A DNA stretch of 64,000 nt from an uncultured Spirochaetia bacterium (GCA_964443355.1 CAYUDX010000011.1:34823-98822), one strand, 5' to 3'. Shown: positions 16,577 to 34,653, numbered from the stretch's first letter. Made by a program: numbers and translations. Notes: generated by a model not told the origin, from the letters alone.

Positions 16577-19500
16577 ATGGCTGGCACAATTTATAACAAT
16601 AACTTTCCACCCAGAGCGCAGGGGCTTTACGACCCATCATTTGAAAAGGATTCATGTGGAGTCGGTTTTATAGTAAACGTTAAAGGTGAAAAGTCCCATA
16701 AAATAGTCAAGGACGGCATGCACATTCTTGAAAGGCTTGCGCACAGAGGCGCGACTGCCGCCGACCCGAAAACCAGCGACGGCGCCGGGCTCATCATCCA
16801 ATTGCCGCATGAATTCCTTGTAAAAGCAGCCGGAGAATCCGGCATAACACTGCCGGACGAGGGGCAATACGGCGCCGGGCTTATTTTTCTTCCCAAGGAA
16901 GAATCCGATTACAAGTTCATAAAGGAAGCATTCGACAGGGCCATAAGCGAAAAGGGACAGGCGCTTCTGGGCTGGCGGAAAGTACCGGTCGACAACAGCG
17001 CCATAGGATACATAGCGAAAGGCAAGGAACCGAATTTTGAGATGATATTCATAAAGAAGGGGGCGAATACCCCGGACCAGGCGGCGTTCGAGCGTAAACT
17101 TTACGTAATAAGGAAAAAAGTCGAGAATTCGGTGCGTCTCGCCGACCTAAAACAGAAATCATATTTTTATGTAACGAACATATCGTCCAGGACACTGAAT
17201 TACAAGGGGTTAATGATGCCCGAGGAGATCGATAATTTTTTTCTCGACCTGAAGGATCCCGCTGTAAAATCGGCTTTATGCTTCGTGCACAGCCGCTATT
17301 CCACAAACACATTCCCCACATGGGACCTGGCCCAGCCGTTCAGGTATCTTGCCCATAACGGGGAAATAAACACGCTCCGGGGAAATATAAACTGGATGCG
17401 CGCCAAAGAGGGGCTTTTTAAGAACGACCTTTTCGGGGATGATATGGCAGATTTAAAACCGGTAATACGCGACGAAGCTCAGTCGGATTCGGCCACGACC
17501 GACAATGCGTTTGAAATATTGACTCTCGGCGGGCGTTCGCTGCCTCACGCGATCCTGATGCTTGTCCCGGGTGCCTGGGAAGATAACAATCAGCTGCCGC
17601 AGGAAACAAAGGATTTCTACAACTATCACGCCTGCTTCATGGAACCATGGGACGGGCCCGCCGCGCTTTGTTTCACCGACGGCGAGTCCATAGGCGCGGT
17701 CCTTGACAGGAACGGCTTAAGGCCCGCAAAATATCTCATTCGCAGGGACGGATGCGTGGTAATGTCGTCCGAAGTCGGGGTCCTGGACGACAAACCGGAG
17801 GATATTGAACACTCCGGGAGGCTTGAGCCGGGCAAGATATTCTATATTGACACAAAAGAGGGCAGGATAGTAAATGACGAAGAGATAAAACACAAAATGG
17901 CAACCAGGAAACCTTACGGGACATGGCTGAAGGAACAGATACTTACACTTGATATGATACCCGAGAAAAAAATTGAAAAGAAATATTCGCCCGAGGCTGC
18001 GCTGACCATGATGAAGTCCTTCGGTTACACCAGGGAGGACCTAAAGGAAATAATAACGCCTCTTGCAGCCACGGCATACGATCCCACAGGTTCCATGGGC
18101 AACGACATGCCCCATGCGGTGCTTTCAAAGAACAGCCAGCCGTTATTCACCTATTTTAAACAGCTTTTCGCGCAGGTTACGAACCCGCCGATAGACTCGA
18201 CGCGCGAAAAATGCGTGATGAGCCTTAACATGTACCTGGGGAAATCGCTTAACATGTTCGCGGAAACTCCCGAGCATGCCCACAAGCTGATGCTAAAGAC
18301 GCCATTGCTTTCCGACGAGGACCTGCTGCGCATAAAAAATATAAATCTGGGCGGTTTTAGGTCAAAAGTCATCTCAATACTTTTTGACGCCGGTGAAAAA
18401 GGGTCGCTAAAGAAAAACCTGGACAGGATATGCGAGGAAGCCGTCGCGGCCGTCAAAGAAGGGTATTCGATAGTTGTTTTAAGCGACAGGGGCGTTAACA
18501 GGGAAAAAGCCGCGATACCGTCGCTCATGGCCGTCGGGGCGGTGCATCATGAGCTGGTGAGGAGGTCGCTAAGGACCCAGATATCAATAGTAATCGAGAC
18601 GGCGGAGCCGCGGGAAGTGCACCATTTTTGCGCGCTCTCGGGTTACGGTGCGGATGCCTACAATCCATACGGCGCTTTTGAGGCCATAAACCACCTTATA
18701 AACACCGGCGAGATAGCAAAGACGTTCGAGGAGTGTCTTAAAAATTTCAAGAAAGGCGTCCATGACGGAATGCTCAAGGTAATAGCCAAGATGGGAATAT
18801 CCACGATACAGAGCTATTGCGGGGCGCAGATATTCGAGGCCATAGGCATACACAGCGAAGTCATAGATAAATGTTTTGCCGGGACGGTTTCCAGGATAGG
18901 CGGAGCCGGATTTGATGAGTTAGAATTGGAAACAATAATGCGCCATAAGGATGCTTATCCAGACAACGGTTCGGCATCGCCCATACTGAAAACAGGCGGC
19001 GTCTATCAGTGGAAAAAAGACGGCGAGTTCCACCTGTGGAACCCGGACACAATAGCCGCGGTGCAGGACGCGTCAAAAAATAACGACCTGAAAAGATACA
19101 GGGATTTTGCGGGGCTCATAAACGACCAGTCGGCCCAGCCGACAACACTGAGGTCCCTGTTTAAATTCAGAAACGCCGCGCCGATACCGGTCGACGAGGT
19201 CGAGCCGGTAAGCGAAATAGTGAAAAGGTTCGTCACCGGCGCCATGAGTTTCGGTTCCATATCCAGGGGTGCCCATGAGGCCATGGCAATCGCCATGAAC
19301 CGCCTTGGCGGCAAATCCAACACGGGTGAGGGAGGAGAGGACCCGATACGCTTTAAACCTTTCCCGGACGGGGATTCCGCCAGAAGCGCAGTCAAACAGG
19401 TTGCCTCAGGCAGGTTCGGGGTCACCACAAATTACCTTACCAACGGTGATGAACTTCAGATAAAGATGGCGCAGGGTGCAAAACCCGGCGAAGGCGGACA

Positions 19501-21124
19501 GCTGCCCGGCCACAAGGTCAGCGAAACAATAGCGAAGACGCGTTATACGACGCCCGGTGTTACTCTCATATCGCCGCCGCCGCATCACGATATTTATTCA
19601 ATTGAAGACCTGAAGCAGTTGATTTTTGACCTTAAAAACACCAATCCGAGGGCCAGGATATCGGTAAAACTCGTATCCGAGGTGGGGGTCGGAACTATTG
19701 CGGCCGGCGTCGCCAAAGGGTTCGCGGACATGATTCTCATATCTGGTTTTGACGGCGGCACGGGCGCCTCGCCGAAAGGATCCATAATCAATGCCGGGCT
19801 CCCGTGGGAACTCGGCGTCTCGGAGACGCACCAGACCCTTGTCCTGAACGACCTGCGCAGCCGCGTAAGGCTGCAGACGGACGGCCAGATGAGGACGGGT
19901 CGCGACGTGGTTATCGCAGCGATGCTTGGAGCGGAGGAATACGGTTTTGCCACTGGCGCACTGATAGTCCTTGGGTGCGTGATGCTCAGGCACTGCCATC
20001 TGAACAATTGCGCGCTCGGGGTCGCAACACAGGACGATTTATTACAGAAACGTTTCCGCGGCAATGCGGACTATCTGGTGAATTATTTCAGGTTCGTGGC
20101 GCAGGACGTCCGGGAAATAATGGCTCAGCTCGGCGTGCGCACGATGAACGAGCTTATCGGAAGGTGTGACATGCTCGAGGTCAATTCCGAGATCCTGCCC
20201 TGGAAGGCCAAAAGGCTCGACCTTTCAAAGATACTTTACAGGCCGCAGGTGGCCCCGGAAGTGGGGACATATTTTAACAGGCCGCAGAAACATGAGATAA
20301 CAGGCGTCCTGGACAGGAAACTTATCGAGAAGTCGATGCCGGCGCTTGAAAGGAAAGAAGCAGTAAGGATAGAGACGGACATAAACAACACCAACCGCAC
20401 CGCAGGCGCCATGCTTTCCGGAGAAATATGTTACCGTCACGGCGAGATGGCCCTGAACGAGGATACGATCCGCATAAAGTTCAACGGTTATGCCGGTCAG
20501 TCGTTCGGCGCGTGGCTCACCGACGGGGTTACCCTGGAGCTTGAGGGAATGGCAAACGACTACGTGGGCAAGGGCATTTCCGGCGGCAAGATAATAGTAT
20601 ATCCATCCAAGAAATCCAGATACAAGCCCGAAGACAACATGATAATCGGCAACACAACATTTTACGGCGCCATCAGGGGCGAGGCTTATATACGCGGAAG
20701 GGCAGGAGAAAGGTTCTGCATCAGGAATTCCGGGCTTTACGGGGTGGTGGAAGGCACGGGCGATCACGGATGCGAATACATGACCGGAGGCAAAGTGGTC
20801 ATCCTCGGCACGACCGGGCGCAATTTTGCCGCGGGAATGTCTGGCGGAGAGGCGTATGTCTACAATGAGGACGGCAAGTTCGTAGAACGCTGCAATAGGG
20901 ACATGGTGGATCTGGACCCAATAGGCGAGGATGACGCGAAAATAATAAAGCAGCTGCTGGCAAACCACATAAAGTACACGGGTTCGGAAAAAGCAGTAAA
21001 AGTTCTAGATAACATAGGTGAAGAGATAAAGAAGTTCATAAAGGTTTATCCAAAAGAATACAAAGCCATAATCGAGGCGCGCAAATCGCAGGAAAAAAAC
21101 CTCGGGCTGGCGGAGGAGAAATAA
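16577..21124 (+). CDS. gltB: Glutamate synthase large subunit
   Basis: N-terminal Ntn amidotransferase Cys (KDSCGVGFIV), FMN and GXGXG domains; 1515 aa. Confidence 0.95.
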   Translation: MAGTIYNNNFPPRAQGLYDPSFEKDSCGVGFIVNVKGEKSHKIVKDGMHILERLAHRGATAADPKTSDGAGLIIQLPHEFLVKAAGESGITLPDEGQYGAGLIFLPKEESDYKFIKEAFDRAISEKGQALLGWRKVPVDNSAIGYIAKGKEPNFEMIFIKKGANTPDQAAFERKLYVIRKKVENSVRLADLKQKSYFYVTNISSRTLNYKGLMMPEEIDNFFLDLKDPAVKSALCFVHSRYSTNTFPTWDLAQPFRYLAHNGEINTLRGNINWMRAKEGLFKNDLFGDDMADLKPVIRDEAQSDSATTDNAFEILTLGGRSLPHAILMLVPGAWEDNNQLPQETKDFYNYHACFMEPWDGPAALCFTDGESIGAVLDRNGLRPAKYLIRRDGCVVMSSEVGVLDDKPEDIEHSGRLEPGKIFYIDTKEGRIVNDEEIKHKMATRKPYGTWLKEQILTLDMIPEKKIEKKYSPEAALTMMKSFGYTREDLKEIITPLAATAYDPTGSMGNDMPHAVLSKNSQPLFTYFKQLFAQVTNPPIDSTREKCVMSLNMYLGKSLNMFAETPEHAHKLMLKTPLLSDEDLLRIKNINLGGFRSKVISILFDAGEKGSLKKNLDRICEEAVAAVKEGYSIVVLSDRGVNREKAAIPSLMAVGAVHHELVRRSLRTQISIVIETAEPREVHHFCALSGYGADAYNPYGAFEAINHLINTGEIAKTFEECLKNFKKGVHDGMLKVIAKMGISTIQSYCGAQIFEAIGIHSEVIDKCFAGTVSRIGGAGFDELELETIMRHKDAYPDNGSASPILKTGGVYQWKKDGEFHLWNPDTIAAVQDASKNNDLKRYRDFAGLINDQSAQPTTLRSLFKFRNAAPIPVDEVEPVSEIVKRFVTGAMSFGSISRGAHEAMAIAMNRLGGKSNTGEGGEDPIRFKPFPDGDSARSAVKQVASGRFGVTTNYLTNGDELQIKMAQGAKPGEGGQLPGHKVSETIAKTRYTTPGVTLISPPPHHDIYSIEDLKQLIFDLKNTNPRARISVKLVSEVGVGTIAAGVAKGFADMILISGFDGGTGASPKGSIINAGLPWELGVSETHQTLVLNDLRSRVRLQTDGQMRTGRDVVIAAMLGAEEYGFATGALIVLGCVMLRHCHLNNCALGVATQDDLLQKRFRGNADYLVNYFRFVAQDVREIMAQLGVRTMNELIGRCDMLEVNSEILPWKAKRLDLSKILYRPQVAPEVGTYFNRPQKHEITGVLDRKLIEKSMPALERKEAVRIETDINNTNRTAGAMLSGEICYRHGEMALNEDTIRIKFNGYAGQSFGAWLTDGVTLELEGMANDYVGKGISGGKIIVYPSKKSRYKPEDNMIIGNTTFYGAIRGEAYIRGRAGERFCIRNSGLYGVVEGTGDHGCEYMTGGKVVILGTTGRNFAAGMSGGEAYVYNEDGKFVERCNRDMVDLDPIGEDDAKIIKQLLANHIKYTGSEKAVKVLDNIGEEIKKFIKVYPKEYKAIIEARKSQEKNLGLAEEK

Positions 21125-21126
21125 TC

Positions 21127-22548
21127 ATGGGAGACCCCAGGGGATTTATCAAGGTTAAAAGGGAAGGTTTTGGATACAGGCCGGTTTCCGAAAGGGTGAA
21201 AGATTATAACGAAGTGGCCGTAATGCACAGCGAAGCGCAGCAAAAAGAGCAGGCGTCGCGCTGCATGGACTGCGGAACGGCTTTTTGCAACTGGGGTTGC
21301 CCGCTGGGAAATTATATCCCGGAATGGAACGACAGCGCATTCAAGGGCCGCTGGCAGGACGCTTTCAGGCTTTTAAATGAAACCGCGACAATGCCCGAAG
21401 TCACGGGACGTGTTTGCCCGTCGCCGTGCGAATATTCGTGCGTCCTGGGGATCGGCGACTCTCCGGTGACCATAAGGGACAATGAGCTCGCCATAATAGA
21501 AAAAGCATGGAAGGAAGGATATATCAAGGCCAACCCTCCGGCAAGACGTACGGGCAAAAAAGTGGCCGTCGTTGGCGCGGGCCCGGCAGGACTTGCGGCC
21601 GCGGCTGTCTTGAACAGGACCGGACATGCGGTCACCGTTTTTGAGAAGAACGACCGCATCGGAGGCTTTATGCGATACGGCATACCTGATTTCAAGCTTC
21701 CAAAGGGCGTCCTGGACCGCAGGATAAGGCTGTGGCAGGATGAGGGGATTGTATTCAAGACCGGCGTTAATGTCGGCATTGATTATGACGTTGAAAAACT
21801 CAGGAAGGAATATGACGCGGTCGTGGTAACAACAGGCTGCAGGGTGGCCCGCGACATGAAAATAAAAGGGCGCGAGCAAAAGGGAATATACCAGGCGGTC
21901 GATTATCTCGAGCAATCAAACAGAAAAGTGGCAGGGGATAAGATCGAAGGGGAGTTAATCGACGCCAGGGGCAAGAACGTGCTGGTCATAGGCGGAGGGG
22001 ATACGGGTTCGGATTGCGTCGGCACAGCCAACAGGCAGGGTGCAAAAAGCGTTGTCCAGATCGAGATACTGCCCCAGCCATCGAAAGAAAGGCCGTTCGA
22101 CCAGCCATGGCCCAATTATCCATTTGTTTTCAAGACATCTTCCAGCCACGAAGAGGGTGTGGAAAGAAAATGGTGTGTTACAACAAAAGAATTCATGGGC
22201 TCCGGCGGATCGGTCAATAAGGTAAAAGCGGCAAGGGTTGAATGGTGCGCAAAACCCGGCGAAAGGGCCTCAATGACCGAATGCCAGGGTTCCGAATTTT
22301 TGATAGACGCGGACCTCGTTTTTCTTTCAATGGGATTTACGAACCCCGTAAAGGAAGGATTGCTTGAAAAGCTCGGGGTTAAACTCAACGAGCGGGGAAA
22401 CGTTTCAAGGGACAAGAACACTTTCGCCACGGACGTACCGGGTGTTTTCGCCGCCGGGGATGTCTCGCGCGGACCTTCACTAATAGTATGGGCGTTTACC
22501 GAAGGCAGGAAGGCTGCCGAAGGGGTAAACGCGTACTTGCTGAAATAA
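21127..22548 (+). CDS. gltD: Glutamate synthase small subunit (NADPH)
   Basis: RCMDCGTAFC...GCPLGNYIPEWN Fe-S motifs; VAVVGAGPAGLAAA and GGGDTGSDC dinucleotide folds; 2 nt after gltB. Confidence 0.9.
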   Translation: MGDPRGFIKVKREGFGYRPVSERVKDYNEVAVMHSEAQQKEQASRCMDCGTAFCNWGCPLGNYIPEWNDSAFKGRWQDAFRLLNETATMPEVTGRVCPSPCEYSCVLGIGDSPVTIRDNELAIIEKAWKEGYIKANPPARRTGKKVAVVGAGPAGLAAAAVLNRTGHAVTVFEKNDRIGGFMRYGIPDFKLPKGVLDRRIRLWQDEGIVFKTGVNVGIDYDVEKLRKEYDAVVVTTGCRVARDMKIKGREQKGIYQAVDYLEQSNRKVAGDKIEGELIDARGKNVLVIGGGDTGSDCVGTANRQGAKSVVQIEILPQPSKERPFDQPWPNYPFVFKTSSSHEEGVERKWCVTTKEFMGSGGSVNKVKAARVEWCAKPGERASMTECQGSEFLIDADLVFLSMGFTNPVKEGLLEKLGVKLNERGNVSRDKNTFATDVPGVFAAGDVSRGPSLIVWAFTEGRKAAEGVNAYLLK

Positions 22549-22585
22549 AAAACAGAGGGCCTGCGATCAAGCGTAAAAACAGCAA

Positions 22586-22612
22586 CCCCGCGGCTTTTTA
22601 AGGACCGCGGGG
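22586..22612 (-). terminator. Hairpin terminator downstream of glnK1 (also sits after the gltD stop)
   Basis: ccccgcgg / ccgcgggg 8-bp stem; a U-run follows on the minus strand. Confidence 0.45.
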
Positions 22613-22649
22613 CGCACGTCTCACAAACCTTTTCGGGGAGGAAGTGAGC

Positions 22650-22991
22650 TTATCCTATGGCTGTTTTTCCTTTTTCGCCGGTCCTTATCCTCAAGCACTC
22701 TTCCATGGGCAGGACAAATATCTTTCCGTCTCCGGTCTCTCCGGAGCGAGCCCCCTGCATTATGGCGTTTATTGTTGGCTCCACGTAATTATCGTTCACT
22801 CCGATCTCGAGCCTTATCTTTCGCAGAAGATTGCCTGATTCCCTGACACCCCTGTAAACCTCGGTGATGCCTTTCTGCCTTCCGTGGCCGAGAACTTCGT
22901 TGACCGTAAGCAGGTTAACGTCCACTTTATAAAGTTCCTGTTTCACTTCCTCGAGCTTTTGCGGCTGAATTATGGCTATTATCAGTTTCAT
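22650..22991 (-). CDS. glnK: Nitrogen regulatory protein P-II (GlnK type, paired with Amt)
   Basis: Canonical PII of 112 aa, T-loop [15 protein letters not shown]-terminal GDGKIFV...RIRTGE; 10 nt downstream of amt. Confidence 0.9.
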   Translation of the reverse strand: MKLIIAIIQPQKLEEVKQELYKVDVNLLTVNEVLGHGRQKGITEVYRGVRESGNLLRKIRLEIGVNDNYVEPTINAIMQGARSGETGDGKIFVLPMEECLRIRTGEKGKTAIG

Positions 22992-23001
22992 GTTTTCCCC
23001 C

Positions 23002-24384
23002 TTACTCTATGAGAGTGTAGGCGCTCTCGTGGTGCTGGGAAAGATCGAGGCCTATCACTTCGTCTTTTTCTTTGGCCCTTAAGCCGAATACCAAGTCCAC
23101 AAGCTTAAAGAGAACAAAACTTCCGACCAGCGTGTAGGCCAATGTGCAACCCACTGCTATGGCCTGTATCAACAGCTGTTTCGGATTACCGTAAAAAAGG
23201 CCGTTGGCCCCGGTTGAATTCACCGCGGTCGTGGCAAAAAGCCCGGTGGCTATGGCGCCAACTATCCCTCCGATTCCATGTACTCCGAACGCGTCAAGCG
23301 AATCGTCATAACCGAGCTTCGATTTTACGAATGCAACCATGAAATAACACACCAGCGACACCAGGATGCCGATGCCGAGCGCTCCGAACACGTCGACGAA
23401 ACCGGCTGCGGGAGTTATGGCAACAAGCCCCGCTACCGCGCCTGTAATAACCCCGAGCATGGTGGGTTTGCCGACCGTCATCCAGTCAAGGACGGCCCAT
23501 GTCAGGGCCGCCATTGCGGCGGCGGTATTCGTGGCAACGAACGCGCTGACCGCAAGACCGTTGGCCGCAAGCGCGCTACCGGCGTTAAAGCCGAACCAGC
23601 CGAACCACAGCAGGGCCGCGCCAAGAACCGCAAAGGGAAGATTGTGCGGCGGGATCGGGCTCGAGAGCCCTTTTCTTTTTCCGAGCACAAGAGCTGAAAC
23701 GAGCGCCGCTATTCCGGCATTGATGTGGACGACGGTGCCTCCGGCAAAATCAAGGGCTCCCATATTTTTAAGAAATCCGCCGACGCCCCAGACCCAGTGC
23801 GCGATAGGGTCGTATATGAACGTGGACCATAGCACCAAAAATATCAGATATGACGAAAATTTCATTCTTTCCGCGAACGCGCCGATTATAAGCGCTGGTG
23901 TAATTATCGCAAACATGGCCTGGAATATCATGAAGGCCTGGTGCGGTATTGTTCCGGCATAATCCGCATACGGTTCGAAACCGACGCCTTTCAGGCCGAA
24001 CCACCCGAAGCCTCCCCAGAAACCGTTTCCAGGATGGAAGGCGAGTGAATAACCGAACAAAACCCATTGCACTGAAACTACGGCAAGCGCAGCCATGCAC
24101 TGCATGAGAATCGACAGCATGTTCTTCTTTCTGACAAGCCCGCCGTAAAAGAATGCCAGCCCGGGTGTCATTAACATTACCAGGGCGGCGGAGACAAGCA
24201 CCCAGGCTGTATCTCCGGCATTAATGGGGACCGGGGGTACTGCAGGTTGAGCCGTGGCTGTGACGGATGCGGTCTGGGTGGTTGCTGCAATTAAAGGCGC
24301 CTTTGCGGCATCGTCAGCCATGGTAAAAGCTGAAAAGGAGAGTAGCAGTAGCGTAGTTGCAAGGATCAAAGATTTTCGGTACAT
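23002..24384 (-). CDS. amt: Ammonium transporter (Amt family), copy 1
   Basis: Signal peptide, 11 TM segments, Amt signatures (DFAGGTVVHI, GAxxERxKF). Confidence 0.9.
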   Translation of the reverse strand: MYRKSLILATTLLLLSFSAFTMADDAAKAPLIAATTQTASVTATAQPAVPPVPINAGDTAWVLVSAALVMLMTPGLAFFYGGLVRKKNMLSILMQCMAALAVVSVQWVLFGYSLAFHPGNGFWGGFGWFGLKGVGFEPYADYAGTIPHQAFMIFQAMFAIITPALIIGAFAERMKFSSYLIFLVLWSTFIYDPIAHWVWGVGGFLKNMGALDFAGGTVVHINAGIAALVSALVLGKRKGLSSPIPPHNLPFAVLGAALLWFGWFGFNAGSALAANGLAVSAFVATNTAAAMAALTWAVLDWMTVGKPTMLGVITGAVAGLVAITPAAGFVDVFGALGIGILVSLVCYFMVAFVKSKLGYDDSLDAFGVHGIGGIVGAIATGLFATTAVNSTGANGLFYGNPKQLLIQAIAVGCTLAYTLVGSFVLFKLVDLVFGLRAKEKDEVIGLDLSQHHESAYTLIE

Positions 24385-24433
24385 TTCATTTTCCTCCCCG
24401 AAAAAAATTTAACAACAATGTGACTTAAAGAAA

Positions 24434-24449
24434 AGCAAAAGGTGTGCCA
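24434..24449 (-). promoter_or_regulatory. σ54 (-24/-12) promoter TGGCAC-N5-TTGCT upstream of amt1
   Basis: Minus-strand sequence tggcacaccttttgct; perfect GG-N10-GC spacing, ~50 nt upstream of the amt1 ATG. Confidence 0.6.
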
Positions 24450-24551
24450 CGATTCAAAAGCCATATAAATAATGGTTATTATTGTTACCAAAAGTCAGTA
24501 TGGTGGTTAAAAAAGCAACAAACATAAAAATCATGATTAAAATATAACCAC

Positions 24552-24594
24552 ATAGCCCCGGTTTTGCTGAACGAAGCCGCAAAACCGGGGCTAT
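24552..24594 (-). terminator. Rho-independent-type hairpin after the divergent PII gene
   Basis: 16-bp perfect stem (atagccccggttttgc / gcaaaaccggggctat), 11-nt loop. Confidence 0.6.
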
Positions 24595-24621
24595 TTATGG
24601 GATTCTTTAGGTTAACGAGTT

Positions 24622-24963
24622 TTAGTAGATGGCCTCGTCTCCTTTTTCGCCAGTCCTTAACCTTATCGCATCGTCAACAGGATGAATGAATATCTTGCCG
24701 TCTCCGATCTCTCCGGTAACCGCGGCTTCCTTGATGGCCGCAACTATCCTTTTTACATCACCGTCCTTGAGCACTATCTCGATACGGGTCTTGGTGATTA
24801 GGTCTATACGATATTTCTTTCCGCGAACTTTTTCTTCCTTGCCGTGCTGTTTGCCGTAACCTTCGATCTCGCTTATCATCATTCCCGGATGACCGACCGC
24901 GTCCAGAGCTTTTACAACGTCCCCGGCCTTATCCGGCCGGACAATCGCTTCTATTCTTTTCAT
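24622..24963 (-). CDS. Divergent PII-family protein (T-loop lacks the canonical Tyr51)
   Basis: PII fold motifs (MKRIEAIVRP..., GDGKIFIHPV..IRLRTGE) but T-loop EGYGKQHGKEEKVRGKKY; strong AGGAGG ribosome-binding site; 12 nt after the permease–PII fusion. Confidence 0.8.
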   Translation of the reverse strand: MKRIEAIVRPDKAGDVVKALDAVGHPGMMISEIEGYGKQHGKEEKVRGKKYRIDLITKTRIEIVLKDGDVKRIVAAIKEAAVTGEIGDGKIFIHPVDDAIRLRTGEKGDEAIY

Positions 24964-24975
24964 GGCATGCCTCCT

Positions 24976-26874: not shown

Positions 26875-26970
26875 TTTTGCACCTCCCGAATTATTTTATA
26901 TCTGTTTCTTTATCCTGTTTCTGCCGACGATATTTTATGCCGAAATTGCTTCGTTTTCCTTACTGTTGCT

Positions 26971-27747
26971 TTATGACTTCGCCGCCGGCGGAGGTGGAAC
27001 CATGTCGAAATCAACATCAAGCTGGAGAGACCACATCATCTTCGAGCTTCCGGCAAACTGCTTTGAAAGGGGGAATACCGGCCCTGTCAAAAGATCCGCG
27101 TTGTCCGCGAAATAGTAGTACAAACCGGCGCCCCATGCAGAAAGGGCGTTGTTGCCGCCCATATAATCCGCGCAAACCTGGAACTTTCCGACCTGCGGCG
27201 ATACGTAGCTGGCCATCAGGCCGCTGGTATCGACTTTTCCGTTATCGTCGATAAGAAGCTTGTCGTTGCCTGAATAAGCGCCGACGCATACCGTCCCGAT
27301 GTTGTCAAATGTCTTTCCTATGGCCGCGTAATAAACGTCGTAATTGGTAACGTTGTTGTCGATGCCAACGTTAAAAACACCCAGTGAAAAGCCGACAGGG
27401 AGCAGGGCGCCTTCGTTCCAGCCGATCTTCGCGTTGAAATAGTTTGCGTCCTTAAATGTTGCCGGTGATGCCACGGGAAGAAGGGCGTCATAACCGACTT
27501 CCGCCTGAATTTCCTTGAACGGCAGCACTCCGACCGTGAAACCGTAATCATTCGAGAGCATGCTGTTGTCGCGCACATAGGAGTCGTAACCGATGTGGCC
27601 CTTCATGAACGGTTGAAAATAGACCGTGCATGGCGTCCAGAAAACCGTGGACGGTGTGGCATTTAGAACAAAAACCGGAACAACCGAGAGAAGAACCGTT
27701 AAAAGAACCGTTGCGATGCTGATCGTTTTGCTTTTTGCTTTTTCCAT
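26971..27747 (-). CDS. Small outer-membrane β-rich protein (putative porin), hypothetical
   Basis: AGGAGG ribosome-binding site, signal peptide (MEKAKSKTISIATVLLTVLLSVVPVFVLNA), alternating β pattern, C-terminal ...LQLDVDF; first gene of the operon with the APC–PII fusion. Confidence 0.5.
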   Translation of the reverse strand: MEKAKSKTISIATVLLTVLLSVVPVFVLNATPSTVFWTPCTVYFQPFMKGHIGYDSYVRDNSMLSNDYGFTVGVLPFKEIQAEVGYDALLPVASPATFKDANYFNAKIGWNEGALLPVGFSLGVFNVGIDNNVTNYDVYYAAIGKTFDNIGTVCVGAYSGNDKLLIDDNGKVDTSGLMASYVSPQVGKFQVCADYMGGNNALSAWGAGLYYYFADNADLLTGPVFPLSKQFAGSSKMMWSLQLDVDFDMVPPPPAAKS

Positions 27748-27809
27748 TTTTCTTCCTCCTTTAGTGTTTTGGTAAATTTTAGTATGCCATTTAATGCTGT
27801 GTTTATATA

Positions 27810-27825
27810 AGCACATGTCGTGCCA
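27810..27825 (-). promoter_or_regulatory. σ54 (-24/-12) promoter TGGCACGACATGTGCT upstream of the outer-membrane-protein/APC–PII/PII operon
   Basis: GG-N10-GC spacing with a TGGCAC -24 box, ~60 nt upstream of the ATG at 27747. Confidence 0.5.
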
Positions 27826-27983
27826 CTGGCATAAACACCTGTGAAATATTGATTATATTTTAAACAATTAATCAATTAATGGTCAATATTTAATCATAGA
27901 AACGCATTGTGATTAAATATTATACACGAATTCAATGTTTTGTTTGAAGGTTTGAAGGTTGTTCGGCCGGCTTAAAAATGACA

Positions 27984-28010
27984 AAAGGCGGGCTTTACGC
28001 CCGCCTTTTG
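27984..28010 (-). terminator. Bidirectional hairpin terminator after glnK2
   Basis: aaaaggcgggc-tttac-gcccgcctttt, flanked by A- and T-runs. Confidence 0.65.
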
Positions 28011-28036
28011 TCTTGCTGATCATGTTAAAATTACAT

Positions 28037-28378
28037 TTATCCTATGGCTTCTTTTCCTTTTTCACCGGTTCTTATCCTGATGCATTCATCCATTGGCAGG
28101 ACAAAAATCTTGCCGTCGCCGGTCTCTCCGGTCTGTGCGCCCGCCATAATTGCTTTTATAGTAGGCTCAAGGAAATCATCGTTTACGCATATTTCAAGCC
28201 TTATTTTGCGCAGCAGGTTGCCCGACTCCCTGACGCCCCTGTAAACTTCAGTAATTCCTTTCTGCCTGCCGTGCCCCAAAACCTCATTAACGGTCAAAAG
28301 ATTTACATTAGCCTTGTACAGCTCCTGTTTAACCTCTTCCAGCTTGTGCGGCTGGATGATAGCGATTATCATTTTCAT
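28037..28378 (-). CDS. glnK: Nitrogen regulatory protein P-II (GlnK type), copy 2
   Basis: ~88% identical to the copy at 22650-22991. Confidence 0.9.
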
Positions 28379-28435
28379 TTAGATCCTCCTGAAAATATTT
28401 TTATTCATTATAGTGCTAAAAATCATCTGAGTAAA

Positions 28436-29773
28436 TCACTCAATTAATGTATAGGCACGCTCGTTATGCTCGCTGACATCGAGCCCCAGAACCTCTTTTT
28501 TATCCGGAACCCTTACGCCAAGTATGACATCCACGAGTTTATAGAGAACGGCCGTTGCGACGACAGTATAGGCCACGGCGGCAAAAGCGCCTATGCACTG
28601 GACTCCGAACTGTCCCGGGTTGCCGAAAAACAAACCATTGGCACCGGCCGGATTTATAAGTTTTGAGGCGAAAAGACCGGTCATGAGAGTTCCCCATAAT
28701 CCGCCTATGCCGTGAACGCCGAACGCGTCAAGCGTATCATCGTAATTGAACTTGGGCTTGATCAAACCTACCGCAATATAACAAATAATGGAAGTGGATA
28801 TTCCGATGGCTATCGCCCCCCATATGCCTATAAAACCCGATGCAGGCGTGACCGTGGCGAGTCCCGCAATGGCCCCGGTGGCTGTCCCGAGCATGGTGGG
28901 CCTTCCTACGGTAAGCCACTCAATGGTGGCCCACGTTAGGGCCGCGGCTGCGGCGGCTATATTTGTTGACAGGAAAGCGCTGATTGCTATATTATTTGCG
29001 GCAAGGGAGCTTCCGGCGTTAAAGCCGAACCATCCGAACCAGAGCAATCCGGCCCCGAGGACCGTAAAGGGCAGGTTGTGCGGCGTCGGCGCCGCGGTAT
29101 GGTTGCGTCGTTTGCCTATTATTATCGCCGTGACAAGCGCTGCGAAACCCGCACTTATATGGACAACTATACCTCCGGCAAAATCCATCACACCCAGTTT
29201 TGCAAGCCAGCCTCCGCCCCAGACCCAGTGGCAGAGCGGATTATAAACAAATGTGGCCCAGAGAAGGGAAAAAATGATGTAGGCGGAGAATTTCATCCTT
29301 TCCGCGAACGCTCCAATGATGAGCGCCGGGGTGATAATGGCGAACATCATCTGGAATATGACGAAAAGCTGGTGGGGGATGTTGGGGGCCCAGGGGCACG
29401 GTTCCATTCCGACGTTGTTTAGGCCTATGTATTTAAGCCCGCCTATAAAACCGTTGCCCGGAGCAAAAGAAAGGGAATATCCGAAAAGCACCCATTGCAG
29501 GCTTATCACGGCCATGGCCATGAAGCATTGCATTAAGACGCCCAGGATGTTCTTTCTCCTGACAAGGCCGCCGTAGAAAAAGGCCAGTCCCGGAGTCATC
29601 AGAAGAACGAGAGCGGAAGAAATAAGCATCCAGGAAATATCCCCGGAGTTTGAAGCTGCTGCCGGAGCAGCGGCAATAGCCGTTGAAACGGCGGGCACGG
29701 ACTGGGCCGCATCCGCGGCGAACATTAAGAATGGACATGACAATACAAACAATAAAATAATAAATCTTTTCAT
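28436..29773 (-). CDS. amt: Ammonium transporter (Amt family), copy 2
   Basis: Paralog of the 23002-24384 protein with the same signatures. Confidence 0.9.
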   Translation of the reverse strand: MKRFIILLFVLSCPFLMFAADAAQSVPAVSTAIAAAPAAASNSGDISWMLISSALVLLMTPGLAFFYGGLVRRKNILGVLMQCFMAMAVISLQWVLFGYSLSFAPGNGFIGGLKYIGLNNVGMEPCPWAPNIPHQLFVIFQMMFAIITPALIIGAFAERMKFSAYIIFSLLWATFVYNPLCHWVWGGGWLAKLGVMDFAGGIVVHISAGFAALVTAIIIGKRRNHTAAPTPHNLPFTVLGAGLLWFGWFGFNAGSSLAANNIAISAFLSTNIAAAAAALTWATIEWLTVGRPTMLGTATGAIAGLATVTPASGFIGIWGAIAIGISTSIICYIAVGLIKPKFNYDDTLDAFGVHGIGGLWGTLMTGLFASKLINPAGANGLFFGNPGQFGVQCIGAFAAVAYTVVATAVLYKLVDVILGVRVPDKKEVLGLDVSEHNERAYTLIE

Positions 29774-29946
29774 TGTGTTCCTCCCCGAATTTGTTATCCC
29801 TTTACTTCAAAGCTTATCTTAGAATCTACAATGAAATATTTTCAAAGCCCTTCCGACAGGGCACTGTGGACCTTCTGCTTTTGACGGCTTTTTAGCGGCC
29901 CCGGGGCGTCGGCACCCCGGGGCCAAGTCGGCGTCGAAGTAGAAGG

Positions 29947-29995
29947 GATCAAAGATGGATAATGGATATGAAATATCCATTATCCATCTTTGATC
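29947..29995. promoter_or_regulatory. 22-bp perfect inverted repeat with a 5-nt spacer, between glnN and amt2
   Basis: gatcaaagatggataatggata-tgaaa-tatccattatccatctttgatc; a GC-rich ggccccgggg hairpin lies ~40 nt away. Confidence 0.5.
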
Positions 29996-30105
29996 TTTGC
30001 TTTTGTAGGGGCGGCCTTATATGGCCGCCCGTTAAGCCCTATGCTTTAAAGAGCGAAAAAATCCCGGAGCGGTTCTTCACCGCCCCGGGAAACATTGGTA
30101 TAGGT

Positions 30106-32217
30106 TTACAGCTTAAAAAGAAGGTCCGCGTAAGTCGGGACTGGCCAGAGATCAGCCGGGACAAGTCCTTCTAGGGCATCGATATCGTCCCTTAATGAAG
30201 TGTAAGCGGTAAATACGCCGTCCCTGTATGCTTCGGCTTTCTTGACCGCATCCGATATATCGGCGGCTTTTGCCCTTGCGTCAACAGCTGCCATGAGCTT
30301 TGCCGATGCGGAATCAAGCAGGGTAGATACCATCTTCAATACCGCTTCCTGCGTCTTTGAAGTGCCGCCGGCGGATTTTACCTTGGAGATTGAATCCGCA
30401 AGTTTTGTCGCATACTTGATGGCGGCCGGTATGAACTGCGTGCTTGCCATGTTAATGGCCGTATTGGCTTCTATATTTATGACCTTGGAATATGTCTCTA
30501 TATAAATTTCATAGCGGCTGTGAAGCTCTTCTTTTGAAAGAACGCCGTATTTTGTGAGGATAGCTTCCGCTTTTGGGGTGATCAGCGCCTTGTGCGCGTC
30601 GACGGAATTTTTTACGTTCGGAAGGCCGCGTTTTGCCGCTTCTTTTTCCCATTCGGCGGAATAGTTGTTGCCGTTGAAAACTATCTTTGAATTTTCCCTG
30701 AAAACGTCCTTGAGTATCGCGGCAACTTCGGCTTTTATATCCTTTGATTTCTCAAGCCTGCCAGCGATCTCGTCGAGCGATTCGGCAACGGCGGTATTGA
30801 GGATCAGCATGGGGCCGGCGCATGACATTGCCGAACCAACCATCCTGAACTCGAATTTATTGCCGGTAAAGGCGAAAGGCGACGTCCTGTTCCTGTCAGA
30901 GTTGTCCTTGGGGAAGGAAGGAAGCGAATCAACGCCGACATTTGTGAATTCCTTGCCTTTGGAGGAGTATTTCTCGCCTTTGCCGAGCTTCTCAAATATC
31001 TCGCCGAGCATGTCGCCGAGATAAACGGAGATGATCGCGGGAGGAGCCTCGTTTGCGCCGAGCCTGTGGTCCTGTCCGGCTGTCGCGCATCCGCCGCGGA
31101 GCATATCGGCGTGGCGGTCAACGGCCCTGATTACGCCCGCAAGGAAAGCCAGGAACTGCATGTTGTCGTGTGGGTTATCGCCAGGCTCGAGAAGGTTCAG
31201 CCCGTCATCCGTTCCAAGCGACCAGTTGTTGTGTTTTCCAGAACCGTTGATGCCCCTGTAAGGTTTCTCATGGAGCAGGCATACAAGGTCGTGCCTCAGG
31301 GCTATCTTCTGCATAAGCTCCATTGTGAGCTGGTTATGGTCGACCGCGGTGTTTAGCATCGAGAATACCGGAGCGTTCTCGAACTGCGCCGGCGCAACTT
31401 CGTTGTGCCTTGTTTTTGAGAAAATGCCGAGCTTCCACATTTCGGTGTCAAGGTCGGCCATGAATGCCGATACATTGTCCTTGATGGTCCCGAAATATTG
31501 GTCCTCAAGCTCCTGCCCCTTGGGGGATGGGGCGCCGAAAAGCGTCCTGCCCGTGAGCTGGAGGTCGAGCCTCTGCATGAAAAGTTTCTTGTCCACAAGG
31601 AAATATTCCTGCTCCGGCCCGAGCGTGGCGACAACTTTTCTTGTCGTTGTGTTTCCGAGGGCTTTCAACACCCTTAAAGCCTGCTTTGAAACCGCGTCGA
31701 TGGAACGCAGAAGCGGTATCTTTTTATCGAGCGCCACACCGGTGTAGGAATAAAATGCAGTGGGAATGAAAAGTGTCACATCGCCGACGGCGTTCTCCTT
31801 GACGAATGCCGGGACGGTTGGATCCCAGGCCGTATATCCGCGGGCTTCAAATGTTGCGCGCAATCCGCCGGACGGAAAAGACGATGCGTCGGGTTCTCCC
31901 TGTATAAGCTGTTTGCCTGAAAATTCGAGCACGATCTCTCCGTCTCCGACAGGCGAAATGAACGCGTCGTGTTTCTCTGCTGTAATGCCGGTCAGCGGCT
32001 GGAACCAGTGGGTGTAGTGCGTTGCGCCCTTTTCAATGGCCCAGTCCTTCATAGCGTTGGCGATTACATTGGCTGTATCCATTGTCATCTGCTTGCTCTC
32101 ATCGACGGATTTTTTAAACGCCTTGTAAACCGCCTTGGGAAGCCTTTCTTTCATTACTTTGTCGCTGAAAACATTGGAACCGAAGATTTCTGCCACATTA
32201 ATAACCGGATTAGACAT
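30106..32217 (-). CDS. glnN: Glutamine synthetase type III
   Basis: 703 aa; GSIII-type N-terminus (MSNPVINVAEIFGSNVF...ATHYTHWFQPLTG) and catalytic core. Confidence 0.9.
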   Translation of the reverse strand: MSNPVINVAEIFGSNVFSDKVMKERLPKAVYKAFKKSVDESKQMTMDTANVIANAMKDWAIEKGATHYTHWFQPLTGITAEKHDAFISPVGDGEIVLEFSGKQLIQGEPDASSFPSGGLRATFEARGYTAWDPTVPAFVKENAVGDVTLFIPTAFYSYTGVALDKKIPLLRSIDAVSKQALRVLKALGNTTTRKVVATLGPEQEYFLVDKKLFMQRLDLQLTGRTLFGAPSPKGQELEDQYFGTIKDNVSAFMADLDTEMWKLGIFSKTRHNEVAPAQFENAPVFSMLNTAVDHNQLTMELMQKIALRHDLVCLLHEKPYRGINGSGKHNNWSLGTDDGLNLLEPGDNPHDNMQFLAFLAGVIRAVDRHADMLRGGCATAGQDHRLGANEAPPAIISVYLGDMLGEIFEKLGKGEKYSSKGKEFTNVGVDSLPSFPKDNSDRNRTSPFAFTGNKFEFRMVGSAMSCAGPMLILNTAVAESLDEIAGRLEKSKDIKAEVAAILKDVFRENSKIVFNGNNYSAEWEKEAAKRGLPNVKNSVDAHKALITPKAEAILTKYGVLSKEELHSRYEIYIETYSKVINIEANTAINMASTQFIPAAIKYATKLADSISKVKSAGGTSKTQEAVLKMVSTLLDSASAKLMAAVDARAKAADISDAVKKAEAYRDGVFTAYTSLRDDIDALEGLVPADLWPVPTYADLLFKL

Positions 32218-32341
32218 AAATTTTACACTCCTTTCGGAATTTTAGGGGATATGAGTATAGATTACCGCAGTCCCTTCAACTTCGCTAACCGACTCAAACC
32301 CTCTGTTTGCCTGTAAACAGGCTTCTAGATGCTATCTAATA

Positions 32342-32357
32342 AGCAAAAAACATGCCA
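32342..32357 (-). promoter_or_regulatory. σ54 (-24/-12) promoter TGGCAT-N5-TTGCT upstream of glnN
   Basis: Minus-strand tggcatgttttttgct, GG-N10-GC spacing, ~115 nt before the glnN ATG. Confidence 0.55.
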
Positions 32358-32553
32358 GATAAAACGCTTGTGAAATATAGTGAAATCTATCTTTTGGTGG
32401 TCAAATTTGGCACAAAAAAAAGTTAGAAATGGTCAAAAGTTATACAAATTTTCAGTTTAATATTGACTTAAAGAAAGAGTATTATATAATAACCAGATGA
32501 TTAAATAATGACCAATTACGGCATGTTATATGCTTATAAATATGGAGGACAAG

Positions 32554-34653
32554 ATGAAAAAGAAAGAGGAAATATCTGCCGTTGCAGCCGCTTCACGGGG
32601 CGGTGATTACGAGAACAAGCTTAAAAAACTGAAACTTGTCCATTATATATCAATAGAAATGAATAAACCGCATTCCACAAAAGCGCTGCTAACATTGATA
32701 CTTGAACGTTGCCTTGAGCTCACAGGAGCAAAGACCGGCAGTGTCATGCTCATAAATGAGGCTGATAATCTCCTCGATATAGTCGCGTATAAGAATCTCC
32801 CGGCAAAAACAGCCGAAGCGACCAGGCTAAAGATCGGCGAAGGAATTACGGGATGGGTGGCAATGACCGGCAGCCCAAAGCTGGTCAACAACACAAGGCA
32901 GGACCCGATCTATATCAAGGTCAGGGAGGACCTATTATCCGAGCTTGCGGTCCCGATAAGGACTGAAAACAAGGTAATAGGCGTAATAAGCGTGGATTCG
33001 AACCGGGAAAACGCCTTTACAGAGGACGATCTGGACCTGTTGCTGATGGTGGCGGAACTTTCCGCTCAGATAATAACAAAGGACAAGATACAGGAAAAGT
33101 TGGGGTCCAAGATAAGCTCGCAGGAGATACTTATCGACACCTTCCATATAATAGAGGAAGAAGAGTCGCTCAACGACGTGTTTAACAAGGTAATGGAAGT
33201 ATTGAAGGACAAAATGAACATTTCCAGGGGCATGCTGGTGCTTTTTGACAAGGAGAGCCCTGATTCTCTGAAGGTTTACAGCGGCTATAAGATAAGCGAG
33301 GACTCCATTAAGAACGGGGTATATAAGATAGGCGAAGGCATAATTGGAAATGCGGTGCTAAAGGGGCAGACCATAGCCGTAGAGGACCTAACAAAAGAGC
33401 CGTTATTCCTAAACAGGCTGAAGATCCAGCGGCCGGAAAAAAACTCCATGATAGCCGCGCCCATCAAGGCGGGGCCGCGTGTCCTGGGCGTACTGTCCAT
33501 CGAAAAAATTTTTGAGGAAAAGGAATACTTTCAGGACGGTGTCCATACTATAACTATACTCGCGTCGCTGATCGCATACAGGGTAAGGAGCTTCCAGCGC
33601 CAGCAGGCCGAGACGCAGAAACTTATAACAGAAAACATCGAATTGCGCAAAGAACTGAAAAAGGACTACAGTTTCAGGAATATCGTCGGCAAGAACGAAC
33701 AGGTGCGGCGCATCATAGAGCAGATCAAAACGGTTTCCAATACCACCGCATCCGTGCTTATCACCGGGGAGACCGGCACCGGCAAGGAATTGATAGCCAA
33801 GATCGTCCATTTTTTGAGCGACAGGAGGGAAAATAAGTTCATTTCCGTCAACTGCGCGGCAATTCCTGAAAATCTCCTCGAATCAGAGTTGTTCGGATTC
33901 GAAAAAGGTGCATTTACCGGAGCGGTCGGCAACAAAAAGGGAAAATTCGAGCTGGCGGACAGGGGAACGCTGTTCCTCGACGAAATAGGAGAGATGCCTC
34001 TCCAGCTCCAGTCAAAGATACTCAGGGCCCTGCAGGAAAAAGAAATTGAGCCGCTGGGCTCCGAAAAATCCACGAAGATCGACATAAGGATAATCGCCGC
34101 CACCAATAAGGACCTGAAAAAGATGGTGGACGAGAAAAAATTCAGGGCGGACCTCTATTTCAGGCTTAATGTGATAACCGTGCACATGCCGGCTCTGCGT
34201 GAAAGGAAAGACGACCTGCCTTTGCTTGTGGATTTTTTCATAAAAAGGTATAATGAAGTATATGGTAAACAGGTGGCGGGCATTGACAGCTCCGTCGAGG
34301 ACATTTTTATGAATTATGAATGGCCGGGAAACATCAGGGAGCTTGAAAACGTCATTGAACGGGCCGTAATAATGGCCAAGGGCAGCCTTATAGACATATC
34401 GCTAATCCCGGACGCAATAAATCCGGCTAAAAACAAGGATGAAGGGTTTAATATCAAGAATTATATAAAGATTGAGTCCAGAAAGAAGGCCAGCGGCAGT
34501 ATATATAAGGAAGTGATAGGTGAGCTTGAAAAATGGCTTATCGAGGAAATGCTGGTGGATACCGGAAATAATAAGTTGAAAACCGCCCAAAAGCTTGGTA
34601 TTAATAGGAATACGCTGAAATCAAAGATGAAAGAGTACGGGATAATCCAATAA
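32554..34653 (+). CDS. σ54-dependent transcriptional activator (GAF–GAF–AAA+–HTH; NifA-like, no receiver domain)
   Basis: Two N-terminal GAF-like regions; AAA+ motifs GETGTGKELIAKIVH and ESELFGFEKGAFTGA (GAFTGA σ54-contact motif); C-terminal Fis-type HTH; GGAGG ribosome-binding site before the ATG at 32554. Confidence 0.85.
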   Translation: MKKKEEISAVAAASRGGDYENKLKKLKLVHYISIEMNKPHSTKALLTLILERCLELTGAKTGSVMLINEADNLLDIVAYKNLPAKTAEATRLKIGEGITGWVAMTGSPKLVNNTRQDPIYIKVREDLLSELAVPIRTENKVIGVISVDSNRENAFTEDDLDLLLMVAELSAQIITKDKIQEKLGSKISSQEILIDTFHIIEEEESLNDVFNKVMEVLKDKMNISRGMLVLFDKESPDSLKVYSGYKISEDSIKNGVYKIGEGIIGNAVLKGQTIAVEDLTKEPLFLNRLKIQRPEKNSMIAAPIKAGPRVLGVLSIEKIFEEKEYFQDGVHTITILASLIAYRVRSFQRQQAETQKLITENIELRKELKKDYSFRNIVGKNEQVRRIIEQIKTVSNTTASVLITGETGTGKELIAKIVHFLSDRRENKFISVNCAAIPENLLESELFGFEKGAFTGAVGNKKGKFELADRGTLFLDEIGEMPLQLQSKILRALQEKEIEPLGSEKSTKIDIRIIAATNKDLKKMVDEKKFRADLYFRLNVITVHMPALRERKDDLPLLVDFFIKRYNEVYGKQVAGIDSSVEDIFMNYEWPGNIRELENVIERAVIMAKGSLIDISLIPDAINPAKNKDEGFNIKNYIKIESRKKASGSIYKEVIGELEKWLIEEMLVDTGNNKLKTAQKLGINRNTLKSKMKEYGIIQ

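Follow-up and report, generated by a model that had tools for sequence, protein, structure and literature searches.

How does an uncultured wetland bacterium regulate its assimilation of ammonium? We addressed this question in a 64-kb stretch of its DNA, referred to here as the window, in which gltB-gltD, two amt-glnK pairs and a gene for a type III glutamine synthetase (glnN) lie close to a gene for a sigma-54 activator. An initial annotation of the same DNA had proposed that sigma-54 controls the 18-kb island as a whole, which is served by an activator that has no receiver domain. Gene calls were checked by Pfam, which bore out every gene that this annotation had named. The genes of the island are as follows:

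16577-21124, plus strand: gltB
21127-22548, plus strand: gltD
22650-22991, minus strand: glnK1 (PII)
23002-24384, minus strand: amt1 (Amt)
24622-24963, minus strand: divergent PII
24976-26874, minus strand: APC permease-PII fusion (AA_permease with a C-terminal PII)
26971-27747, minus strand: 258-aa secreted protein, predicted 12-stranded outer-membrane beta-barrel
24622-27747, minus strand: the outer-membrane barrel/APC-PII/PII operon formed by the preceding three
28037-28378, minus strand: glnK2 (PII)
28436-29773, minus strand: amt2 (Amt)
30106-32217, minus strand: glnN, type III glutamine synthetase (Pfam GSIII_N, Gln-synt_C and Gln-synt_C-ter)
32554-34653, plus strand: GAF-GAF-Sigma54_activat-HTH_8 activator, divergent from glnN

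Two start codons had to be revised. The open reading frame of the outer-membrane protein had been started at 27816, which is wrong in that it overlaps a promoter; the ATG at 27747, behind GGAGG, takes its place. For the activator, the most likely start is 32554 (GGAGG-N5-ATG), and the earlier choice of 32530 is less likely. With these genes in place, the reading that we favor, to which we assign a probability of about 0.72, is that a one-component enhancer-binding protein, of the type represented by EbpA of Leptospira, controls a compact regulon for ammonium assimilation within the island. The evidence for this reading comes from three promoters, from the inverted repeats upstream of them, and from the activator itself.

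Three -24/-12 elements had been proposed upstream of amt1, the outer-membrane-protein/APC-PII operon, and glnN. We found each of them exactly where it had been placed, and corrected the way in which their strand had been presented, as all three are on the minus strand:

32342-32357, minus strand: glnN sigma-54 promoter, TGGCATGTTTTTTGCT; score 20.9, rank 1; predicted transcription start near 32331, with a 5' leader of ~114 nt
24434-24449, minus strand: amt1-glnK1 sigma-54 promoter, TGGCACACCTTTTGCT; score 19.3, rank 2; predicted leader of ~39 nt
27810-27825, minus strand: outer-membrane-protein/APC-PII/PII operon sigma-54 promoter, TGGCACGACATGTGCT; score 17.1, rank 3; predicted leader of ~52 nt

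The scores are from a matrix built from the published sigma-54 consensus, with weights set by us. When both strands of the 64 kb were scanned with this matrix, a check that the initial annotation had suggested for the whole genome, the three sites were the top three matches of the window, and the third-best score in 20 shuffled windows was never above 15.2. The strict pattern TGGCAY-N5-TTGCW is matched twice in the window, versus 0.14 matches expected. Each of the three sites is intergenic, lies 50-125 nt upstream of a start codon, and has GG and GC doublets 10 nt apart in a TGGCAC-N5-TTGCW-like context, with the gene in the same orientation. Sigma-54 sites are also found at orthologous positions in at least seven other loci (each designated by L and a number), the activators of which are 61-91% identical to that of the window. 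The promoter upstream of glnN recurs in L081, L085, L086, L087, L088, L091 and L162, that upstream of amt in L081 and L088, and that upstream of a small envelope-protein gene in L081, L085, L086, L088, L107 and L148. Judged by their sequences and by this conservation in orthologous loci, the three promoters look genuine. A fourth match to the sigma-54 matrix (55724-55742, minus strand) is antisense within a radical-SAM gene, and was taken as chance.

What might bring an activator to these promoters? A side-by-side reading of the glnN/activator spacers of eight genomes revealed a repeated TTTRACCAY, often in the form of a 17-bp inverted repeat. The corresponding dyad pattern, TGRTYA-N5-TRAYCA, is matched exactly three times across the window versus 0.03 expected, and none of 100 shuffles reached three. 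These exact dyads, at 24534-24550, 27880-27896 and 32498-32514, are found one upstream of each sigma-54 promoter, so that enhancer-like inverted repeats, which the initial annotation had suggested seeking, are present upstream of every one of the three. Because the pattern was defined after these sequences had been viewed, we rebuilt the matrix from the sites of other genomes only. This non-window matrix gives six matches scoring at least 13 in the window, five of which are upstream of the three promoters; as background, it gives 13 such matches in 1.28 Mb of unrelated activator loci (contig-search loci drawn by the generic AAA+ peptides ESELFG and WPGNVRELE, which are mostly unrelated activators, with only L001 being orthologous). 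The sites are arranged as follows:

24534-24550, no strand assigned: enhancer dyad TGATTAAAATATAACCA, at ~-119 of the amt1 promoter; score 25.0
24503-24511: amt1 half-site TTTAACCAC, nearer the promoter than the dyad
27850-27866, 27880-27896 and 27910-27926, no strand assigned: three-dyad array, 30 bp centre to centre; scores 20.5, 20.3 and 15.8
32498-32514, no strand assigned: dyad TGATTAAATAATGACCA, at ~-175 of the glnN promoter; score 19.3 with the non-window matrix, exact match
32427-32436 and 32395-32404, minus strand: two half-sites TTTGACCAY between this dyad and the glnN promoter, near -100 and -68

The dyads of the array are situated at about -59, -89 and -119 of the outer-membrane-protein operon promoter, and a like three-dyad array with 30-bp spacing is found in L081 (5263-5339) and in L148. 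A weaker dyad copy (32479-32495) stands beside the one at 32498-32514, and half-sites equivalent to the two upstream of glnN are present in L081, L086 and L088. Conservation of dyads adjoining the activator gene extends to L081, L085, L091 and L092; in the last of these, where the activator gene is no longer next to glnN, two dyads nevertheless lie directly upstream of it. Dyad and promoter co-occur in the lineage of the window (L081, L085, L087, L107, L148 and L162), in the Goldbacteria-labelled L088, in L091, and in L163, a Brevinematales-labelled metagenome-assembled genome (MAG), where three dyads are located between divergent sigma-54-like sites for amt-glnK-glnD and APC-PII/PII. L142, also of the window lineage, has dyads upstream of glnN, but the one sigma-54 site found in it is downstream of that gene. 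Because dyads and activator co-occur across lineages, a dyad adjoins the activator gene, the recognition helix is near-invariant, and the geometry is enhancer-like, we infer that it is this activator that binds the dyads. The literature that we searched yielded no publication describing the dyad of this activator family or its linkage to glnN.

The activator has the domain order GAF1-GAF2-AAA+-HTH_8. Pfam detects two GAF stretches and no Response_reg match, in agreement with the earlier claim that a receiver domain is absent. Its AAA+ sigma-54 interaction domain (PF00158, E = 2.5e-73) has an intact GAFTGA loop (EKGAFTGAVG), in which F454, T455 and A457 are invariant in 30 homologues and the other residues are invariant or nearly so. 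The HTH_8 domain (PF02954, E = 1.2e-09) occupies residues 665-703 of the 707-residue translation from 32530, and its recognition helix, LGINRNTL(K/R)xK, is nearly invariant across the family. The closest NCBIfam model is nifA (TIGR01817), for which the activator scores 482.8 bits, under the equivalog cutoff of 528.85. It also falls below the cutoffs for FhlA (NF011958; 345 versus 830 bits) and NtrC (TIGR01818; 332.8 versus 558.6 bits), and only its AAA+/HTH part aligns with the latter. The best match in the PDB is NifA (9qq6_C, residues 198-613, E = 1.5e-94); by the same matching, GAF2 resembles the GAF domains of NifA and of Aquifex Nlh1/2, and GAF1 weakly resembles that of PtsP. There is no histidine kinase gene in the island, and no rpoN among the annotated open reading frames of the 64-kb window.

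Full-length relatives of the activator that are 80-91% identical to it are found in peat and wetland metagenome bins, and MAG GCA_003159495.1 is a close relative of the window. Relatives labelled Goldbacteria and Aerophobetes are ~65% identical, one labelled Aureabacteria is ~60% identical, those in Brevinematales and Thermospira are 46-47% identical, and that in Leptospira is 42% identical. A search of protein representatives with the GAF1-GAF2 region was swamped by giant multi-GAF proteins, and is uninformative on the size of the family. The divergent pairing of the activator gene with glnN is kept in eight lineages, and this synteny persists down to 47% identity (Thermospira). In the Brevinematales-labelled L001 (5177-12046), the orthologous activator gene is divergent from gltB-gltD and not from glnN; the gltB/activator spacer of this locus has a dyad-like site with a score of 15.6 and no strong sigma-54 match.

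Is such an activator new? PMC12655853, which summarises Hu et al. 2017, describes EbpA of Leptospira as having two GAF domains and no receiver, as binding upstream of two lipoprotein genes and of amtB at its sigma-54 promoter, and as being needed for the transcription of those genes, for low-nitrogen growth, and for survival in water. The same source gives Leptospira at most two such activators, the other of which has a receiver domain. A receiver-less, two-GAF sigma-54 activator of amtB was, by this account, already established by experiment in Leptospira, and the novelty implied in the initial annotation was overstated. When compared to the window activator, the Leptospira GAF-GAF protein P0117 (698 aa) gave E = 3.3e-165, with 42% identity and 97% coverage. 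We take P0117 to be an EbpA because Leptospira's only other such activator, according to this source, carries a receiver.

The likenesses between the two systems extend beyond this alignment. Like EbpA (LIC_10132), the window activator is a receiver-less GAF-GAF-AAA+-HTH protein, and it has an HTH signature in common with P0117, although the recognition-helix context is NTLDKK in Leptospira versus NTLKSK in the window. EbpA activates a sigma-54 promoter of an ammonium transporter gene and is needed at low nitrogen; in the window, a conserved sigma-54 promoter and a dyad stand upstream of amt1, the transcription of which may depend on the activator. Just as the EbpA regulon has its lipoproteins, that of the window includes an envelope protein of unknown function, the small outer-membrane barrel. 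Unlike in the window, the activator gene in L090, the one Leptospira locus examined, is unlinked to glnN or amt, and the targets reported for EbpA do not include glnN, the APC-PII fusion or the 12-stranded barrel. The circuit in the window is a new example of the experimentally known EbpA kind. What it adds is a gene linked to glnN, more targets, and an enhancer motif that is predicted.

Other known systems are more distant. DVU1949 of Desulfovibrio vulgaris is a predicted one-component (non-receiver) sigma-54 nitrogen activator, to which DVU1231-1233, DVU1258, DVU3392 and DVU1823-1821 have been assigned as targets (Kazakov et al. 2015, PMC4641369). Its motif differs, being 16 bp long and of the TTTACA-N4-GTAAC type, its HTH sequence is unrelated to that of the window activator, its regulon includes glt genes, and it is not divergent from glnN. 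We take its targets to be amtB-glnK, a type III glutamine synthetase gene, glnA and gltB. DVU1949 is a predicted functional analogue and not a member of the same family. NifA is likewise a receiver-less sigma-54 activator, and GAF2, the AAA+ domain and the lid can be aligned with it; unlike NifA, the window activator has an extra N-terminal GAF domain. No nif genes are found in the window or in the related loci.

The circuit resembles proteobacterial NtrB-NtrC in having sigma-54 promoters for glutamine synthetase and Amt, arrays of 17-bp dyads, and a sigma-70 promoter that appears to be repressed through the same sites. It differs in that there is no receiver and no adjacent histidine kinase, the dyad sequence is another one, the glutamine synthetase is of type III and not type I, and the amt-linked PII proteins lack Tyr51. 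Tyr51 is the PII residue that is uridylylated by GlnD in Proteobacteria, feeding NtrB. Read against an E. coli reference sequence, both GlnK1 (22650-22991) and GlnK2 (28037-28378) have Glu at T-loop position 51, and the third PII keeps Tyr51. The presence of Glu51 in the amt-linked PII proteins fits a circuit that works without the proteobacterial GlnD-PII-NtrB relay, and is no proof of one. The Brevinematales-labelled L163, by contrast, has glnD beside amt-glnK.

How would the circuit work? In the EbpA-type regulon that we propose, the activator would bind the 17-bp dyads (TGRTYA-N5-TRAYCA, with a consensus of approximately TGATTAAAWWTTTAACCA) and the flanking TTTRACCAY half-sites, the bound sites being ~30 bp apart and 60-175 bp upstream of the three sigma-54 promoters. 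Upon nitrogen limitation, its AAA+ ring would remodel the closed complex of sigma-54 RNA polymerase, and this would turn on glnN, amt1-glnK1 and the outer-membrane channel/APC-PII/PII operon. The dyad beside the activator's own gene would allow probable self-repression, and gltBD and amt2-glnK2 would adjoin the regulon without being directly sigma-54 dependent. The signal would be nitrogen status, presumably sensed by the tandem GAF domains. Their input may equally be the direct binding of 2-oxoglutarate or glutamine, or else contact with PII. The GAF domain of NifA is the textbook case of 2-oxoglutarate or PII input, and by analogy with NifA the activator may sense 2-oxoglutarate.

The proposed self-repression concerns the promoter of the activator gene:

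32463-32490, plus strand: sigma-70-like activator promoter TTGACT-16-TATAAT (consensus scan, 11/12 matches)

The dyad at 32498-32514 sits at about +1 to +17 of this promoter. Because the dyad overlaps the start of the promoter, the activator probably represses its own gene, and NtrC exerts a similar autorepression at glnAp1/glnLp. Sigma-54-like sites also immediately precede the activator gene both in the window (32518-32536, plus strand, ACGGCATGTTATATGCTTA) and in L081 (9989-10007, plus strand), and another is ~105 nt upstream of the Leptospira homologue in L090 (9877-9895, plus strand). We rejected the site at 32518-32536 as a likely promoter because transcription would start within the GGAGG ribosome-binding site and because the site is absent from L085 and L086; its function is doubtful, and positive autoregulation of the activator gene is conceivable.

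In all, the initial interpretation holds for the promoters, for the receiver-less activator divergent from glnN and for the enhancer repeats, but not for sigma-54 control of the whole 18-kb island. The regions upstream of gltB and amt2 have no sigma-54 match of at least 7 and no dyad of at least 10, and the same is true in the relatives. From these sequences, we propose that gltBD and amt2-glnK2 are neighbours of the regulon that are not directly sigma-54 dependent. For amt2, a consensus scan found a weak candidate promoter of another kind:

29845-29816: weak sigma-70-like amt2 promoter TTGAAA-18-TAAGAT

A canonical terminator follows glnN at 30090-30062, and only if transcription from glnN read through this terminator could amt2-glnK2 be sigma-54 dependent.

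Several observations weigh against the regulon as we propose it. Only three of the five transcription units of the island carry its signals, and two do not. L086, the activator of which is 80% identical, keeps the promoters and has only half-sites ~30 bp apart, with no dyad scoring at least 13. The dyad is AT-rich, and some other DNA-binding protein could bind it. Finally, the proximal dyad of the outer-membrane-protein operon (at ~-59) is closer to its promoter than typical enhancers are.

We therefore considered what else could account for the locus. The three promoters could be real and be driven by another enhancer-binding protein encoded elsewhere, such as NtrB-NtrC, with the GAF-GAF protein regulating something else or itself. 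Classical nitrogen control of glnA and amtB does use NtrC, and some sigma-54 promoters have more than one activator, as in the case of DVU1231, which is assigned to both DVU3220 and DVU1949. However, no NtrC-type site (GCACY-N5-RGTGC) is present near any of the three promoters. Similarly, no NifA-type site (TGT-N10-ACA) is located upstream of them, the only matches near them (27800-27815 and 32304-32319) being downstream of or over the promoters. The sole conserved upstream motif is the dyad, which tracks the activator gene across lineages and is also found beside that gene, and the Tyr51 of the classical relay is missing from the amt-linked PII proteins. Control by another activator is unlikely in our estimate.

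Alternatively, the dyad could serve as an operator for some separate regulator, either a nitrogen repressor or a global one, and the activator could bind other sites, for example the TTTRACCAY half-sites alone. The dyad beside the activator gene overlaps a sigma-70-like promoter both in the window and in L081, which is the geometry of an operator, and the half-sites of L086 stand without dyads. TTTRACCAY alone occurs 5 times in the window versus 2.6 expected, which is not a significant enrichment. Yet the half-site is one arm of the dyad, and the dyads lie at -59 to -175, in 30-bp arrays, upstream of the sigma-54 promoters and not over them. Their N5-spaced, 17-bp form is also the format of NtrC-type HTH_8 domains, which use 17-bp dyads with an N5 spacer. 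We regard a separate operator function as improbable. Least credible, and very improbable, is that the -24/-12 matches are chance or non-functional and that the housekeeping sigma factor transcribes these genes: the best match in single shuffled windows can reach 17-20, and sigma-70-like hexamers are abundant in the AT-rich spacers of the island (23 found versus 10.6 expected), but the three sites are top-ranked, correctly oriented and each in a spacer that precedes nitrogen genes, persist in loci with no more than 61-70% protein identity, and have an intact sigma-54 activator encoded alongside.

If the EbpA-type regulon is correct, it bears on a subject that is poorly mapped outside of the Proteobacteria, Firmicutes, Actinobacteria and Cyanobacteria. 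Ammonium assimilation appears to be governed by one protein family in three deep lineages or more, namely the peat-associated lineage of the window, a Goldbacteria-labelled genome, and Brevinematales-type spirochaete-labelled genomes, and the EbpA-like protein of Leptospira belongs to the same family. The analysis yields a concrete binding motif and a target list, which includes two uncharacterised, widespread families (the amt-linked barrel and the APC-PII fusion), and it supplies hypotheses for the enhancer of Leptospira EbpA. Thermospira aquatica, which is cultivable and keeps the glnN/activator pair, is a possible test organism. No concept is overturned, as a receiver-less GAF activator with sigma-54 nitrogen genes was already known.

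Two of the predicted targets have features of their own. The APC-PII fusion belongs to a widespread, strongly conserved and apparently uncharacterised family. Its best 120 matches are all two-domain proteins with 65-100% identity, and its relatives carry the labels Brevinematales, Endomicrobiales, Omnitrophica and Nitrospiraceae. In both loci examined, the window and L163 (7001-9251), the gene after the fusion encodes a divergent PII of its own, in which Tyr51 is kept. The 258-aa protein is predicted to be a 12-stranded beta-barrel with a signal peptide and a KdgM/COG4313-like fold; it has no Pfam or NCBIfam match, and is 8% identical to its structural matches. Homologues of the barrel are found in Elusimicrobia- and Anaeromyxobacter-labelled genomes. 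Because the barrel gene adjoins amt in the one Anaeromyxobacter locus examined (L093, 6001-6759), the barrel may be an ammonium-related outer-membrane pore.

In relatives, the slot of the barrel operon is taken by the gene for a ~232-aa signal-peptide protein ending in YNF:

L081, 4449-5159: ~232-aa protein gene
L085, 3128-3829: ~232-aa protein gene
L086, 6495-7193: ~232-aa protein gene
L088, 14665-15345: ~232-aa protein gene
L091, 6568-7263: ~232-aa protein gene

Membership of this protein in the same family as the 258-aa barrel was rejected (BLASTP E = 0.26). Its gene has a sigma-54 promoter and a dyad array in L081, L085 and L088, a promoter with half-sites only in L086, and a dyad with a degenerate promoter in L091. 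By sequence, this looks like a non-homologous replacement within one regulatory slot.

A second kind of conserved element is found downstream of glnN, outside of the sigma-54 circuit proper:

29897-29947, minus strand: glnN 3'-end element, CCCTTCTACTTCGACGCCGAC followed by a GC hairpin with the loop GCCGAC
L081, 7294-7362: 21-mer and hairpin
L085, 7139-7207: 21-mer and hairpin
L086, 7511-7579: 21-mer and hairpin
L087, 3053-3121: 21-mer and hairpin

Its invariant C/U-rich 21-mer, CCCTTCTACTTCGACnCnnAC, is single-copy in the window, where it lies between glnN and the next gene. Seven related loci have a single copy of the 21-mer each, and ten further metagenome contigs also carry it; wherever its position was identified, it is downstream of glnN. 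The element of 21-mer and hairpin is found in L107, L119, L135, L142, L148, L150 and L162 as well, and compensatory changes are seen at 10 of the 12 pairs of the hairpin. The 21-mer has a complement in the 5' leader of glnN (~32268-32293), with a predicted duplex energy of -31.8 kcal/mol versus -17.2 +/- 2.9 for shuffles. Among 40 window 5' regions the glnN leader is the best partner for the 21-mer, but an equal energy is reached at one other window site. This complementarity recurs in L081, L087 and L162, is weaker in L085, and is absent in L086 and L142.

Searching the window with Rfam at gathering thresholds, glnN 5' leader included, gave no match, and no glutamine riboswitch was among the sub-threshold matches in 29700-30200, the stretch to which the search below threshold was confined. 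The best match to the hairpins next to the 21-mer, Rfam TD-2 RNA (37.1 bits versus a gathering threshold of 48.7), was set aside, as it stems from a pair of generic hairpins (29950-30028) and leaves the 21-mer outside. The element could be a terminator with a regulatory seed, a 3' untranslated region (UTR)-derived small RNA, or a protein-binding site. We tentatively entertain, as a possibility of lesser likelihood, that 21-mer and hairpin form a regulatory RNA (a 3'-UTR small RNA or a cis-acting 3' element) with seed pairing to the glnN leader, and perhaps to further leaders rich in GAAGG, for example the PII_b and amt2 leaders. If so, type III glutamine synthetase would be subject to post-transcriptional feedback by the element, atop the EbpA-type sigma-54 switch. 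It would then be an independent analogue, in an uncultured lineage, of GlnZ, the enterobacterial small RNA from the glnA 3'UTR. Between the glnN terminator and the 21-mer there is also a perfect palindrome (29948-29994) with a stem of at least 20 bp. Its sequence varies among genomes with the pairing kept: L081 shows compensatory changes, and the stem of L085 is a different one. At the palindrome position (7070-7632), L085 has ~2.5 tandem copies of a ~115-nt unit, and L148 and L086 are without the palindrome.

On the other side of the island, a gene begins 27 nt past the activator stop codon (34681-35586, plus strand) and is found in the same position in L081, L085 and L086. Its product, 301 aa long, is predicted to have two membrane segments; it also has a stretch of coiled coil and ends in a C-terminal domain of unknown kind. 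The gene may be co-transcribed with that of the activator, and the product may act as the activator's partner. Farther along, the window encodes two HydABC-type [FeFe] hydrogenase clusters with NuoE-like, NuoF-like and HydA-like proteins (37530-43000, 43077-45326, 46518-50126 and 50305-55752). These are accompanied by genes for gltD-like NADPH-dependent oxidoreductases, by a probable maturase gene, HydF (Pfam), and by two radical-SAM genes that are probably HydG and HydE. The hydrogenase genes point to an anaerobic fermentative lifestyle. Finally, 10365-16366 and 36178-37092 encode a 1586-aa Ig-like-domain protein with a type IX sorting tail, a FadL/PorV-like TPR protein, and a PorV/PorQ-family protein. 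Their domains suggest an FCB-type type IX secretion system, in contrast to the nearest labelled relatives of the activator, which are Goldbacteria.

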